Part shown: in pieces, positions 18,578 through 23,945 of the stretch
Layout: every line of letters begins with the position of its first letter
Numbering within the stretch: the first letter of the stretch is position 1
IMG/VR virus record: IMGVR_UViG_2881966637_000002
Location: 31,846 to 95,845 of that record
DNA: 64,000 nt
Direction: 5' to 3' (one strand)
DNA from: a virus
Lineage: Duplodnaviria; Caudoviricetes
Made by a program: the position numbers and the translations under genes
Notes under the pieces: model-generated
What the model was told of the DNA's origin: nothing
The model's input: the letters and a program-made list of their open reading frames with translations, nothing else
Database searches by the model: none

Positions 18578-19156
18578 TTAGATTTCCCAAGACACGATTA
18601 TGCTACCGGTCTGCCCAGGGTTATAGTTCGGCTGAAACTCGGAAACCTTGTAGCGTTCTTTGCGTAAACGAGCTAACAGTTCAGTAGAAAATCCGTGCCT
18701 GGAGTCAAACTTTTTAATCAAGCAACCTTGTTTAGCCGCCTGTTGAATGCCGGCGAAAACTTCAGCAAATTCTTGATCGTCCTTTTCTTTCGCTACCCGA
18801 GCCCTTAATGCTATAGTTTTTGCCTGTTCGGCCGACAACACTATAGTACCATATCCTTTCTCGTTCTTCTCAATAAACGGACTTTCAATGGTTGACGAAG
18901 GCTCTATCGGAGTAAAAATTACGCCCGCATCTGCGTTTTTTTCCTTAGCACTATCTGCCGCGAAACAGGCAGCAATTTTACCCAATGCTCCCGTAACCAA
19001 GTTGGCATCTTCCCGACTGTCAAGCACAACATATAGCTCAACAGATTTCGCATTGTCCGGAAGTGGAACATTCTCAATACGATGCACCTGGTCGCTTGTA
19101 ATATCTGAATACAGCCAGCCGTCGTGGCAGAATGATCTTATTTTTAGCTTACTCAT
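18578..19156 (-). CDS. Hypothetical protein, AT-richer insertion in the structural operon
   Basis: 192 aa ORF with visibly lower GC than its flanks. Confidence 0.6.
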   Translation of the reverse strand: MSKLKIRSFCHDGWLYSDITSDQVHRIENVPLPDNAKSVELYVVLDSREDANLVTGALGKIAACFAADSAKEKNADAGVIFTPIEPSSTIESPFIEKNEKGYGTIVLSAEQAKTIALRARVAKEKDDQEFAEVFAGIQQAAKQGCLIKKFDSRHGFSTELLARLRKERYKVSEFQPNYNPGQTGSIIVSWEI

Positions 19157-19167
19157 CTTTAGTTGGG

Positions 19168-19845
19168 TTATGGTTGGTTTATGGGCGTTTCAGTGCCCTC
19201 ATTCTTTTTGTCGGCTCGTTGCCAGGTCGCGACGTTACCACCGCGCAGGCGCATTTCGGCCCGTTCCTTGATCACGGCCCGGTTGTTCTCCCACTGCCAC
19301 GGTCCTTCCCAGTACGCCGGATCATTGCGATCCAGCCCTTCCCACGGGTTTTCCATCGCCCCGGTAACGCTCAGCTCATCGACCGCCACCAGTTGCGTCG
19401 TGGTATACACGAATAAGCTGTTGCCCTCCACGCAATAAGTCGAGACGTTGTTGCGCCTGGACACAACGGGTAGCTGCCACCGCTGAGCGACCGGCACCAG
19501 CGAGGCTCCGCAGCACGACACATTGGTGATGTAGGGCGTGCCGTTCCACGATAAGAAGGTGGGGATCGGTGCAGAGCGAACATTGGTGTCGCAACTCGCG
19601 CACTCGTCTCCGGACAGGGTGACGGTACGGGTCGTTATACGCCACGGCGCGATCTGCTGACCCAGTTGCAGCGTCCGGGCATCGTCTTTCACCCGTAACG
19701 CTGTCTGTTGCGCGATCAGCTCGGGTTCGATCTGATAAATCGTGATATTGCTATCATCGACCGGACCACTGCCGTACAGCGCATTCAGCACCTCGTAGGC
19801 GCAGGCCCGCAGACTGTCCGGGTGTATAACGACCTCGTTTTCCAT
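19168..19845 (-). CDS. Putative tail ring/tubular protein (crAss ring-like)
   Basis: C..CD...RSAPIPTFL and VTGAMENPWE patterns; size and position. Confidence 0.6.
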   Translation of the reverse strand: MENEVVIHPDSLRACAYEVLNALYGSGPVDDSNITIYQIEPELIAQQTALRVKDDARTLQLGQQIAPWRITTRTVTLSGDECASCDTNVRSAPIPTFLSWNGTPYITNVSCCGASLVPVAQRWQLPVVSRRNNVSTYCVEGNSLFVYTTTQLVAVDELSVTGAMENPWEGLDRNDPAYWEGPWQWENNRAVIKERAEMRLRGGNVATWQRADKKNEGTETPINQP

Positions 19846-19846
19846 C

Positions 19847-20305
19847 TTACTTCGCGTTGTGCTCTATTAAGCCCTTTATAGCCGACTGGTATAGCTTGCC
19901 AAGAAGCTCTGCGTATTCCTTCTCCATAAAGGCATCATAGTTAGTCTTTCCGCTATGCCTTTTTTTGCTAATGAGAATCTGTCGCTGTTCGCCCCCTACG
20001 GTGAATGTCTGACCATTTACATAATCAGCCATGTTGATCAATCCAGGCGAAACAAATTCTTCATCGGCTTTCGCGTTACCCACAAAGCAGTTTTCTGGCC
20101 GAATCAGGTTTTCTCTCGCCAGAAGGCAACTCGTAGCGTACTGTTCAGACGACAAGTCCAGTTGCCGATGGTGATTTATATATTGCCGGGCTTTGGACAA
20201 CTGACCCACACCGTTGATTTGTTGCGATCCCCAGTCCTGAAACGGATTGGGCTCACCGGATCTGACCGGGAACGCATACGTTTCCCATTGGCTTTTGCCC
20301 GACAT
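19847..20305 (-). CDS. Hypothetical protein, possibly the -1 frameshift extension of 20374..20580
   Basis: Frame stays open upstream through the CCT TTT TAA site; its ATG sits in the hairpin GCCCGA-ATG-TCGGGC. Confidence 0.55.
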   Translation of the reverse strand: MSGKSQWETYAFPVRSGEPNPFQDWGSQQINGVGQLSKARQYINHHRQLDLSSEQYATSCLLARENLIRPENCFVGNAKADEEFVSPGLINMADYVNGQTFTVGGEQRQILISKKRHSGKTNYDAFMEKEYAELLGKLYQSAIKGLIEHNAK

Positions 20306-20373
20306 TCGGGCCTTTGCATAAATTGTTGTTATGCCTTGATTCGCGGCAACGTCCTTGTCGAACGTTGCCGCAC

Positions 20374-20580
20374 TTAAAAAGGTCGGATAACGACCTCGAC
20401 CTGTTCCAGCTTGTCCAGATACTTCTCAGGGATTTCCCGGCTGGCGAGCGTCTTGGCATGATCCTCGTTAGTGGCCAGCACGTTTTTAGGATCAAGGATA
20501 ATTTCGGTCTGCTTCCCGGCCTCTACATCTTTGGCACTGGGGTGAAACAAAATGGCAATTTGAAACAGTCGTTTTTTCAT
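20374..20580 (-). CDS. Small phage protein ending ...VVIRPF
   Basis: 68 aa, A-rich leader, ends in CCT TTT TAA followed by a hairpin. Confidence 0.75.
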   Translation of the reverse strand: MKKRLFQIAILFHPSAKDVEAGKQTEIILDPKNVLATNEDHAKTLASREIPEKYLDKLEQVEVVIRPF

Positions 20581-20593
20581 CTGTATTTGGGTT

Positions 20594-21151
20594 TTATAAA
20601 ATTGCGTTCCAGAGTTGGTCCAGGGTAATCGTGCCGCCCTCCGCGATCATTTTCTGCAACCGGGCTTCGGCCTCCGATAGCTCTTTGGCCGTTTCGTTGA
20701 TCAAGCCGCGCAGGTTCTTAGCGGCCGTAACCTGCTTGGGAAAGTCAGCGTGATCAGCCTTTTTCCACACCATCGAATCTTCCTGTTTCTGATACTGCGC
20801 CAGTTTGCGCTTTAAAAACGCGACGTTCGTAACGTCCGGAATGGACGGCAATTCCAGCAGCGCATTGGTCAGCTTCACAAAAGCATCGTCCTTGTACAAG
20901 CCGGTGGGGTACAGCGTCCGGCCCATGTTGTTGACATGGCCCTGGTTCATGGCGGTCATGTGCTCAATGACCTCTTTTTCCCGCAGCTCCAGGTCGCTTT
21001 GCTTGCTGTGCAGGGAGATCGGGTGAGCGAACCAGCACGCGTAATGCAGGGCCGCGTCGCCCCACAAGTTGACCAACGGCTTTATGTCCGGGTGATCCAG
21101 TACCGTGATCGGCCAGCCAAACCCTTTGTCCGGTGTATAGAAAACAAGCAT
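20594..21151 (-). CDS. Hypothetical protein, possibly a crAss-type terminase small-subunit-like protein
   Basis: Helical 185 aa protein; loose recalled similarity to the protein encoded before TerL in crAss-like phages. Confidence 0.4.
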   Translation of the reverse strand: MLVFYTPDKGFGWPITVLDHPDIKPLVNLWGDAALHYACWFAHPISLHSKQSDLELREKEVIEHMTAMNQGHVNNMGRTLYPTGLYKDDAFVKLTNALLELPSIPDVTNVAFLKRKLAQYQKQEDSMVWKKADHADFPKQVTAAKNLRGLINETAKELSEAEARLQKMIAEGGTITLDQLWNAIL

Positions 21152-21428: not shown

Positions 21429-23945
21429 TTACTGGGACGACGATAACGCGGCCTGTTGCTCGGCTGACGCCTGCTCCATTTCTGCATCCATAACCTTATT
21501 TTCCCGGTCGGTGTTCGTCTTTATATCGGTCAGCGTCCCTTTGAAATCTTCTTTCTCCCGGTTATCCGCTACCCGCATCTGAGCGACGAGAATATCCTTC
21601 TCAATTTCCATGCGCAGTAGCTCTTTTTCGTGGTCGCGCTGGGCCTGTTTGTCGGCCAGTTGCATCTGAGCCAGTTGACCCTCTTGCTGGGCCTGTGCCG
21701 ACGCCCGTTCGGCCACGGCCTCCCGTGCTTTGCGGTAATTGGCGTAGCCAACGGAAGGATTGGGCGAGAGAATGATCTGCATCAACGCTTCGGCGTCGTC
21801 CGAGCCGCCCGACTGCATGAGCAAGGTGACGAGTTGATCCAGGGCCTGCTTCGTATCGGAGAGTAACTGACCCGACTCTAACCGGATCGCGAAGTCCGCG
21901 CTGCGCAACTCGCGGGTGAGCTGGAGAATTTTCTGCTCGTTTTTGCTGATCACCATCAACGCCTGGTTATCGACGGCGTAATGGAATTTGGATACGTCGG
22001 CGCAGGTCTGTAGCAGCTCGTTCATGAACTGGCTGTGCTCCCAGTTGAAGTCGATATTGAGCTGCTTTTGATTCGCGATGTTGAGCTGCTGCTGCTTACC
22101 CGAGGAGTACGGGCTGGTCTGACCCTGAACATCGGGGCCGGCCCCGACCCGTATTTCGTAGCTGGTTTGCCAGTCGCGAAACATTTGCCACGCGACTTTG
22201 AGCTGTTCGCTGGCGTTGGAGAGCTCGATTGTTTTTAAATGCTGCAAGCCGGCCATGTTGCCCGGCTGGTACTTGGTGCTGTCGATCTTGACCACACCGG
22301 TCATTTTCGCATTGTAGCGGTAGGCCACCGCGTTTTTACCCTGCGTATCGTCAATGATCAGGGCTTTGTCATACCCCATGTCGGCCAGAAACATATCGAC
22401 CCGCTGCATGAGTACGTTGCCACGGGCCGCGTCGTCCTCCCCGAGCCTGGCCATCGACTTCTCGTAGCTGATCCGGCCTACAACCGGCCAGTATATTTTG
22501 TCCCGCTCCTGGGTATCTTCATCAAAATCAGGTTGGTATTTGTACGGGCCGATGTCGATAAACGAGTCGTGGCCGATCCGTTTAAACGACCATAGCTGAG
22601 GCCGGGCGTATACTTTCACATTGGCCCGGCTTGGTAATTTGGTGCCGATTGGTGTAAAGTCGATGTCGTAGCCGATCCCACCGCTACGAGCCGTTTGCCA
22701 GCTCTTTAGCTCTCTGTCGGTCGCCGGGCTGCGGGTGCCATCGCGATCCACGCGCTCGACCATGAACCGCTTTTCCCGCAGCATGGTGAAAAAGTTGTGC
22801 TGCACCAGCATATTCACCAGCAGCTTGCCCGTCCCGCGCATGGGATAGAACAGGTTGCGCATCCAGTTCACCTCCGTACTGGTGTAGTCCCTGTTCTCGT
22901 CCAGGCAGTAATTGGTGGTGTCGGCTGATATGCCCCGGCTGGACCAGTAGGTGCCGTACGGGTCGTAGCCGATACGGGGCGCGTTGCGCTCGAACAGCTT
23001 TTCCACGTACCGCAACGCACCCTTCACCCCGGTGCCGGTCGCGAGCTGGCCGGTGCCGAACGTATTGATCAGTTCGGTCGGCGTCATGTACTCGTTGACC
23101 TGGATACCGAACACAGCGGGGTCGCTGAGCTGCTCGACGGGTTTACCCGCCATCCACCTTACTTCGGCCGGCGTAAGGGCCCTGGCGCACACCCGGCCGT
23201 TCTTGACTTCGGTGAACGCGAACTGGCCATTGACCCGGAACTTATGCTTTAACGATTTACGACCGATGTCCTGAAAGCTGCACCGGGCGTCAATGTCTTG
23301 CAACAGGTCGTAGACAATGCCTTGTACCTGCTCTTGCCCGGTGGCGAAACTCAGCCACTCGTCGGTGGTTTTGGGCAACTGGATGTTGGGGTCAATTACC
23401 GGCGCAACGTGGCCTTCCCCCTGGGCGTACATGGTCTGAAGCATGGATTGCATCGCCAGCTTCGCGCCTTTCTTCGCGTCGTCCAGAATAGACTTCTGGG
23501 CGAAATCGGTATTGATATTGCGGACGCCGAACTGAAACGGCTGGGCCAGGATCTGGCTGAGAATGGTTTTTTCCGCGCCGTGGAAGAAATGGTTGTCTTT
23601 CACCCCTAACGCCGGCTCCTCCCCGAACAGCTTCATCAACGGTTCGTAATCGCTGCGGTTCAGCTTTCCGGCCACGACGTCATAGAGTCTGGCGTGGTTC
23701 GGGTTATGATTGCCGTAGAGCGGGTGGGGGTTGAGCAGCATGTAGTCCGATACACGGCGCAGGAACTCAACCAGAAGCAGGGGGTTGGTGTTGAACTCGT
23801 CGTTCCAGACCAGGATTGGCTGGTCGAATAGCTGCTTCTGGCGGGCTTCGCTCGACGCCTGGTATTGCCACGGCAGTTGGTCATGCCGCGACACATAGGC
23901 GTTGTACGCGTTCTGGTGAGCTATCGGTACGTAGTTGGAAACCAT
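21429..23945 (-). CDS. Portal protein (podovirus, crAss-like size)
   Basis: 838 aa, first gene of the structural operon; N..LYDVVAGKLN..DY near the N-terminus; long Q/A/E coiled-coil C-terminus. Confidence 0.75.
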   Translation of the reverse strand: MVSNYVPIAHQNAYNAYVSRHDQLPWQYQASSEARQKQLFDQPILVWNDEFNTNPLLLVEFLRRVSDYMLLNPHPLYGNHNPNHARLYDVVAGKLNRSDYEPLMKLFGEEPALGVKDNHFFHGAEKTILSQILAQPFQFGVRNINTDFAQKSILDDAKKGAKLAMQSMLQTMYAQGEGHVAPVIDPNIQLPKTTDEWLSFATGQEQVQGIVYDLLQDIDARCSFQDIGRKSLKHKFRVNGQFAFTEVKNGRVCARALTPAEVRWMAGKPVEQLSDPAVFGIQVNEYMTPTELINTFGTGQLATGTGVKGALRYVEKLFERNAPRIGYDPYGTYWSSRGISADTTNYCLDENRDYTSTEVNWMRNLFYPMRGTGKLLVNMLVQHNFFTMLREKRFMVERVDRDGTRSPATDRELKSWQTARSGGIGYDIDFTPIGTKLPSRANVKVYARPQLWSFKRIGHDSFIDIGPYKYQPDFDEDTQERDKIYWPVVGRISYEKSMARLGEDDAARGNVLMQRVDMFLADMGYDKALIIDDTQGKNAVAYRYNAKMTGVVKIDSTKYQPGNMAGLQHLKTIELSNASEQLKVAWQMFRDWQTSYEIRVGAGPDVQGQTSPYSSGKQQQLNIANQKQLNIDFNWEHSQFMNELLQTCADVSKFHYAVDNQALMVISKNEQKILQLTRELRSADFAIRLESGQLLSDTKQALDQLVTLLMQSGGSDDAEALMQIILSPNPSVGYANYRKAREAVAERASAQAQQEGQLAQMQLADKQAQRDHEKELLRMEIEKDILVAQMRVADNREKEDFKGTLTDIKTNTDRENKVMDAEMEQASAEQQAALSSSQ

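Follow-up and report, generated by a model that had tools for sequence, protein, structure and literature searches.

The window, by which we mean the whole stretch of 64,000 nucleotides analysed here, comes from a crAss-like prophage of Spirosoma (genome G000, contig C1). On its minus strand lies a short gene of 68 codons, g68, whose last codons are CGA CCT TTT TAA, and which is followed by a linker of 24 codons that contains a perfect inverted repeat, and then by g152, an ORF whose stop lies 1 nt ahead of the ATG of the next gene (Table 1). The coordinates and the final codons of g68 are those given in the initial annotation, which had read this arrangement as a probable programmed -1 frameshift joining the two frames.

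Table 1. Features of the g68-g152 region and its two neighbours (positions are those of the window).
Feature	Position	Strand	Basis or remark
g68, 0-frame gene, constant N-domain, including TAA (20374-20376)	20374..20580	minus	68 aa; family HMM E = 4.5e-34
Candidate slippery heptamer A_CCU_UUU, 0-frame stop directly after	20377..20383	minus	Consensus C_CCU_UUY; A_CCU_UUU also in L088
Putative stimulatory hairpin, 13 bp, 5-nt loop	20342..20372	minus	Inverted repeat and RNAfold; perfect 10-bp core 20343-20371
24-codon linker, LSAATFDKDVAANQGITTIYAKAR, reading in the -1 frame only	20306..20377	minus	Codon-usage log-odds
Small hairpin with the ATG of ORF 19847-20305 in its loop	20297..20311	minus	Folding of the start context
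g152, bulk of the proposed -1 extension, annotatable 152-aa ORF with its own ATG	19847..20305	minus	ORF list
g185, conserved upstream neighbour	20594..21151	minus	Comparison with related elements
g225, conserved downstream neighbour	19168..19845	minus	Comparison with related elements

The two arms of the inverted repeat, GCGGCAACGT and ACGTTGCCGC (20343-20352 and 20362-20371), are 100% complementary over 10 bp with 9 nt between them, as had been noted together with the short spacer that precedes them, and RNAfold extends the stem to 13 bp. A stable structure was looked for 5-9 nt past the heptamer, and the 13-bp hairpin was found to begin 4-5 nt past the TTT. The 96-nt region that holds it folds at -38.1 kcal/mol, against -21.8 +/- 2.8 for shuffled sequences (z = -5.75), and none of 200 dinucleotide shuffles was as stable. 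No match for the region was found in Rfam.

Upstream of its ATG, the frame of ORF 19847-20305 stays open as far as 20425 and thus overlaps the 3' end of g68. After a -1 slip on TTT, ribosomes would read TTA AGT GCG GCA and go on for 176 codons, compared with 40 in the +1 frame, within an open stretch that runs from 20425 to 19850; the sum, 68 + 176 = 244 aa, agrees with the product size predicted at the outset. The linker between the slip and g152 has a codon-usage log-odds of +2.4 in the -1 frame and of -23.8 and -8.5 in the other two, while 24-codon windows used as a benchmark score 7.9 +/- 6.1 in frame and -14.5 +/- 9.7 off frame. The linker, hairpin included, is coding-like in the -1 frame only, a signal that is weak but consistent. 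Taken alone, an open linker of 24 codons in the right frame has a chance of about 1 in 10; it is the hairpin and the comparative data that make the anatomy significant. A second small hairpin, GCAUAA...UUAUGC (6 bp, 20316-20334), lies between the main stem and the hairpin around the ATG of g152, and the 70-nt linker thus contains three consecutive stem-loops.

Several genes around g68 identify the element and the module. A 1308-aa protein encoded at 13162-17088 matches the Pfam crassvirus muzzle families, and relatives of an 838-aa protein encoded at 21429-23945 are named portal protein in Fibrella, Arsenicibacter and Spirosoma, the nearest with 59% (P0003) and 53% identity (P0004); a search with this portal found no plasmid and no GenBank phage. 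The order portal - X - g185 - g225 - g205 - muzzle is kept in the related elements that we compared, from S. fluviale (L006), a Fibrella prophage (L007/L010), a metagenome contig (L008) and two more distant genomes (L011, L012). Since the homologues of g185 and g225 are neighbours in Fibrella and in the metagenome contig, the unit of g68, hairpin and g152 is an insertion specific to the window lineage; in S. fluviale, the two homologues flank an unrelated ORF of 117 aa (L006 10665-11018). Judged from these gene orders, this group of crAss-like Spirosomataceae phages has a hot spot for insertions in its virion operon, at the g185|g225 junction (19168-21151).

Two further observations concern the same operon and the same host. 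The gene g192 (18578-19156), for which no Pfam or PHROG match was found, is a second lineage-specific insertion, as the homologues of g225 and g205 are adjacent in all relatives. Another crAss-like portal gene, very divergent from the one in the window (23% identity), is present elsewhere in the same genome (contig C21, L004 1334-3826), with a 313-aa ORF that is unannotated there just upstream of it. Given this divergence and a gene organisation that also differs, the host carries two distantly related elements.

Homologues of g68 had to be collected by several routes. In a protein word-index search g68 found only itself, and nothing useful was returned by tblastn against GenBank phages or by single-protein patterns in IMG/VR. 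A six-frame search of 400 genomes of the family gave one clear homologue, in Spirosoma G363 (39% identity, E 5e-11), a protein of 69 aa ending in CGC CCT TTT TAG, with two small hairpins after the stop and a -1 frame open for 110 codons in which the first start codon does not come before codon 74. The ESM Atlas holds viral clusters of 68-73 aa near g68, with TM scores of 0.90-0.95 over all 68 residues. We then scanned IMG/VR with degenerate DNA patterns encoding R-x-I-P-E, 12 residues, [IVLMF]-R-P-F and a stop, in which synonymous positions were left free. This gave 36 distinct loci, the window included, all of them true members (family HMM E 1e-18 to 1e-34), with a locus GC content of 28-67%; g68 shares 33-54% identity with the 33 other members aligned.

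As these patterns include the 3' end of the gene, a scan with the N-terminal motif L-F-E-Y-A-V-x-x-H-P only, blind to the 3' end, served as a control for ascertainment. It added 15 complete members, 14 being distinct, and in each the -1 ORF spans 53-130 codons, as against 1-36 codons in the +1 frame. When the stop requirement was dropped from the IMG/VR pattern, no member fused in frame was found, the extra matches being due to chance only. With two members as queries, tblastn matched only a 735-kb uncultured huge phage (LR756501/LR756503). This copy (L074, LR756501.1 260165-261765; the record is unannotated) lacks the IPE motif, ends in CGC CCT TTT TAA and has a -1 ORF of 188 codons that encodes collagen-like G-x-y repeats, with no start before codon 51. 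The IMG/VR contigs, another Spirosoma prophage and the huge phage together make 51 distinct family loci. Neither Pfam nor PHROGs returned a match for g68, g152 or any of 34 family members, and our literature searches found no description of the family. These small phage proteins ending in RPF and a stop are a widespread family outside Pfam and PHROGs.

The 3' end of the gene is nearly invariant across the 51 loci at the level of nucleotides, almost always C_CCU_UUY with the stop directly after it. Among the 36 loci from the degenerate scans, Arg66 is CGC in 32, compared with 26% at the other Arg codons of the same genes, and Pro67 is CCT in 35, compared with 13% at the other Pro codons and with 5 of 36 at the equally conserved Pro51. 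Phe68 is TTT in 23 loci and TTC in 13, and the stop is always next. On sequence, C_CCU_UUY is a perfect X_XXY_YYZ heptamer, built from synonymous codons that are fixed despite the wide range of GC content. The window has the same RPF-stop ending (CGN CCT TTY and a direct stop), in the form CGA CCT TTT TAA. The initial annotation had held that TTC in homologues would speak against frameshifting. TTC does occur, yet the members that have it retain the open -1 frame, and it does not refute the reading because C_CCU_UUC is still a valid X_XXY_YYZ heptamer, on which tRNA-Phe re-pairs on UUU after the slip.

Past the stop, each member whose downstream DNA could be read has an open -1 frame, of 46-188 codons (46-176 in the first 35 loci), compared with a median of about 10 codons, and mostly no more than 12, in the +1 frame. 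There is no ATG, GTG or TTG at all in the -1 ORFs of L032 (80 codons) and L037 (62 codons), and only a late one in L029 and L036; in other members, in-frame start codons at arbitrary positions of the extension are common. Most extensions are rich in Ser, Thr, Asn and Ala and have in common a C-terminal motif, [ST]-Y-x-[STN]-A-[SA]-x-[LIV], which argues that the -1 frame is translated and under selection at the protein level. The start of the next gene falls at -4 to +14 nt from the -1 stop in about half of the loci, yet 150-550 nt past the 0-frame stop. Downstream hairpins have a mean z of -1.84 (z below -2 in 17 of 35 loci) and begin 3-8 nt past the heptamer; their sequences differ, even among the related loci L061, L063 and L072, where the stem is kept. 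The window hairpin is the most stable of the 35, and its spacing is canonical. An alignment of homologues had been proposed as the check on the frameshift reading, and with a conserved slip site, open -1 frames and hairpins in about half of the loci it speaks in its favour. The suggestion of a constant N-terminus joined to a variable C-terminal domain also stands, the extensions ranging from Ser/Thr/Asn-rich tails of about 50-110 aa to the collagen-like tail of 188 codons and the unrelated 176-codon extension of the window.

A few members depart from the consensus while retaining a canonical extension. L078 has C_CCU_UUG, in which the residue is now Leu and the other nucleotides are kept; L083 has one extra sense codon (Ala) ahead of the stop; L088 has A_CCU_UUU, as in the window; and L087 has G_CCU_UUU. 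Four members in all (L059, L068, L087 and L088) have G, T or A at position 1 of the heptamer. L091 has G_UCU_UUU, with Ser in place of Pro, and its extension is canonical too. Together with L078 and L083, it would be a useful natural mutant for defining the requirements of the slip site. A different case is L045 (156-221 and downstream), which ends in CGT CCC TTT TGA, with -1 and +1 frames both open for about 50 codons and an atypical, hydrophobic extension; it may have lost or changed the recoding signal.

In the mechanism that we propose, the majority of ribosomes translating g68 would stop at the TAA that follows Phe68, and their product would be an alpha/beta protein of 68 aa. The 13-bp hairpin would pause a fraction of them with CCU in the P site and UUU in the A site. 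When these move one base back, tRNA-Phe would re-pair perfectly with UUU and tRNA-Pro with two of the three bases of ACC. The next codon would be UUA (Leu), and translation would go on through ORF 19847-20305; the resulting protein of 244 aa would combine the N-domain of g68 with a C-terminal domain specific to the lineage, the junction peptide being ...VVIRPFLSAATFDK. The anatomy of the site and the conservation of the heptamer at the nucleotide level can be read directly from the DNA, and the -1 ORF bears the marks of translation across the family. For the family as a whole, we hold -1 frameshifting to be almost certain. Slippage in the window copy itself, and its efficiency, we infer from these data, and we consider it quite probable that the window carries a programmed -1 ribosomal frameshift cassette with a second product of 244 aa. 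With similar confidence, we take the window hairpin and the ORFan g152 to form one expression unit with g68 in the virion operon.

The window copy has peculiarities that bear on this reading. Position 1 of its heptamer is A (CGA, not CGC), so that the A-site part, U_UUU, is perfect while re-pairing in the P site is imperfect. Its extension is among the longest of the family, exceeded only by that of the huge phage, and has an in-frame ATG at codon 24. A profile made from the C-terminal 45 residues of 32 extensions gives it a score no higher than that of shuffled sequences, and the family motif was not found in it; the tail ..KLYQSAIKGL.., which we had considered as a version of this motif, was rejected by the same profile test, its likeness being visual only. 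The window extension is also unrelated to that of the other Spirosoma member (L036), which, like the huge-phage extension, differs from the common motif type. No relative of g152 was found among 5.8 billion proteins (word index) or 1.84 billion representative proteins (exhaustive phmmer). The sole match, P0013, was a repeat-inflated low-complexity artefact.

These peculiarities feed the main rival of the frameshift reading, that the window lineage also, or only, makes g152 from its own ATG. In its strict form, g68 would be a complete family protein and g152 a separate accessory gene, the frameshift would have been lost or become negligible in this lineage, and the hairpin would act as an element of mRNA stability or processing or as a translational insulator. 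The degenerate position 1 of the heptamer is in line with this, as is an extension far longer than usual and with no detectable homology to other extensions, and the N-domain is predicted to be a complete, confidently folded unit that ends at RPF. The g185|g225 hot spot, occupied in S. fluviale by an ORF of another kind, also agrees with it. The four members with another base than C at position 1, however, still have canonical extensions, and the same 3' cassette with a -1 ORF is present in every family member examined. The window hairpin exceeds all others of the family in stability and is canonically spaced, and the 24-codon linker is open and coding-like in exactly the -1 frame. As for the ATG of g152, starts at arbitrary positions are common in other extensions too. 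The initial annotation had placed this ATG in a hairpin and described its leader as lacking the usual A-richness. The first part holds: the ATG at 20305 is sequestered as the 3-nt loop of a 6-bp stem, GCCCGA-AUG-UCGGGC, and its context (-25..+25) is in the top 7% for structure among the 95 gene starts in the window. The second does not, since the upstream A content, 0.35 (rank 0.51), is close to the mean for the window, 0.37, a point in favour of an independent start. On balance, we regard two independent genes as improbable.

Slippage could in principle take place during transcription instead, with RNA polymerase adding one extra U on the T5 run in a subset of mRNAs that would then encode the fusion. 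The window does have a run of five T, and a +1-nt transcriptional slip gives the same protein as a -1 ribosomal slip. The sites known for slippage in transcription depend on runs of about 7 or more A/T, however, and the 13 members with CCT TTC keep the -1 ORF with a run of three T only. What the family conserves is the heptamer pattern with its upstream CC(C) and not the length of the run, and the position of the hairpins, 3-8 nt away, fits ribosomal pausing. We therefore judge transcriptional slippage to be very unlikely. Less credible still is a stop created by a sequencing or assembly error, or by a recent frameshift mutation in the homopolymer, in a single 244-codon gene or a pseudogene: one extra T in the T5 run would indeed fuse the frames, but some 50 independent loci from different samples have the stop in the same register right after Phe (or Leu), homopolymer-free TTC versions among them, and dropping the stop requirement brought up no member fused in frame. 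Stop-codon read-through is excluded by another 0-frame stop 13 codons on. An intrinsic terminator is excluded as well: the hairpin has no U-tract, being followed by GAAUCAAGGC, and a terminator scan reported none there on either strand.

If programmed -1 frameshifting is the right reading, the constant part of the two products would be the N-domain. Its AlphaFold2 model, made from a 34-sequence alignment, has a pLDDT of 95 and a beta-alpha-beta-alpha-alpha-beta topology. Foldseek found no significant match to this model in the PDB or BFVD; the best hits (TM about 0.6, E > 0.02) were PurS, PaaB, archaeal ribosomal protein LX and phi29 p6. As these structural matches are not significant, no function can be transferred to the N-domain. 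Most family loci lie amid recombination and replication genes, which include UvsX-like recombinase, Sak4-like annealase, RecE-like and other exonucleases, RuvC-like resolvase, ribonucleotide reductase, DNA polymerase and clamp-loader-like ATPases. In both Spirosoma prophages, the gene is part of the packaging/virion module: in L036 it is flanked by terminase and portal, and in the window it follows the portal. Our best guess is that the N-domain may be an assembly or binding module, oligomerising or docking, and that frameshifting would equip a fixed minority of the molecules, the minor isoform, with an exchangeable C-terminal domain.

Phage precedents for such an arrangement exist. Among them are gpG/gpGT of lambda and their counterparts in long-tailed phages, tail assembly chaperones made by -1 frameshifting in an arrangement conserved beyond sequence (Xu, Hendrix & Duda 2004, cited in PMC10885494 and PMC4276943). 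The g68 family resembles lambda G/GT in that a short phage gene has an X_XXY_YYZ site close to its 3' end, and the proposed products, a short major and a longer minor one, would have the N-terminus in common. It differs in that the slip site consists of the last two sense codons, with the stop at once, and that the N-domain is a 68-aa alpha/beta domain; no sequence or profile similarity of the family to tail chaperones was found in Pfam or PHROGs. The genomic context is different too: the element in the window is crAss-like (podovirus-type), no major tail and tape-measure genes flank g68, its neighbours being the portal, conserved small virion genes and the crAss muzzle, and most other members of the family are found amid recombination and replication genes.

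In T7, gene 10 gives the major and minor capsid proteins 10A and 10B by a -1 frameshift near the end of the gene. Here too the shift lies close to the 0-frame stop and puts a C-terminal extension on a fraction of the molecules, but g68 is not a capsid gene, and its extension exceeds the core domain in size and differs from phage to phage. The tau and gamma products of E. coli dnaX result from a -1 frameshift at A_AAA_AAG with a downstream hairpin. This is likewise a bacterial-type -1 shift with a simple stem-loop and two isoforms in a set ratio, and many family members lie in replication modules; the shift truncates the product in dnaX, whereas it would extend it here, and the proteins are unrelated. 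The heptamer itself is found in West Nile virus, where C_CCU_UUU, the NS1' site, is an experimentally used -1 heptamer (PMC11797035). It is identical to the family consensus and is also stimulated by a downstream RNA structure, although in that case the context is a eukaryotic RNA virus with an unrelated protein, a pseudoknot as stimulator and no 0-frame stop right after the heptamer. The mechanism would thus be of the classic heptamer-spacer-hairpin type. Because sequence and profile similarity are lacking and the genomic context is different, the family is, by these comparisons, outside those of lambda G/GT, T7 10A/10B and dnaX.

Frameshifting of the -1 type has been documented in phages mainly for tail assembly chaperones and a few capsid genes, and the prediction tools have been trained almost entirely on chaperones (PMC10885494); the PRFect paper likewise describes the annotated phage frameshifts as almost all tail chaperones. 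The family reported here has one of the clearest comparative signatures of frameshifting, with fixed synonymous codons, start-less -1 ORFs and a conserved motif in the trans-frame, and it offers an independent training class for frameshift predictors. It also points to a class of recoded genes that has so far been invisible to annotation, called as hypothetical proteins of about 70 aa followed by 'intergenic' DNA. With correct annotation, many phage genomes would gain a hidden protein of 50-190 residues.

With its constant domain and exchangeable C-terminal domains, the family further lends itself to the question of why two isoforms in a fixed proportion are needed by phages. More speculatively, and with clearly less than even probability, the 68-aa domain with its C_CCU_UUY, stop and hairpin could be a portable 'frameshift display' cassette that moves between modules and genomes, from 40-kb phages to the 735-kb huge phage, and captures whatever -1 ORF lies downstream. 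The window might then represent a recent capture, in which a 152-aa ORF that has retained its ATG came under frameshift control within the virion operon. If this were true, programmed frameshifting would be a general route of domain accretion in phages.
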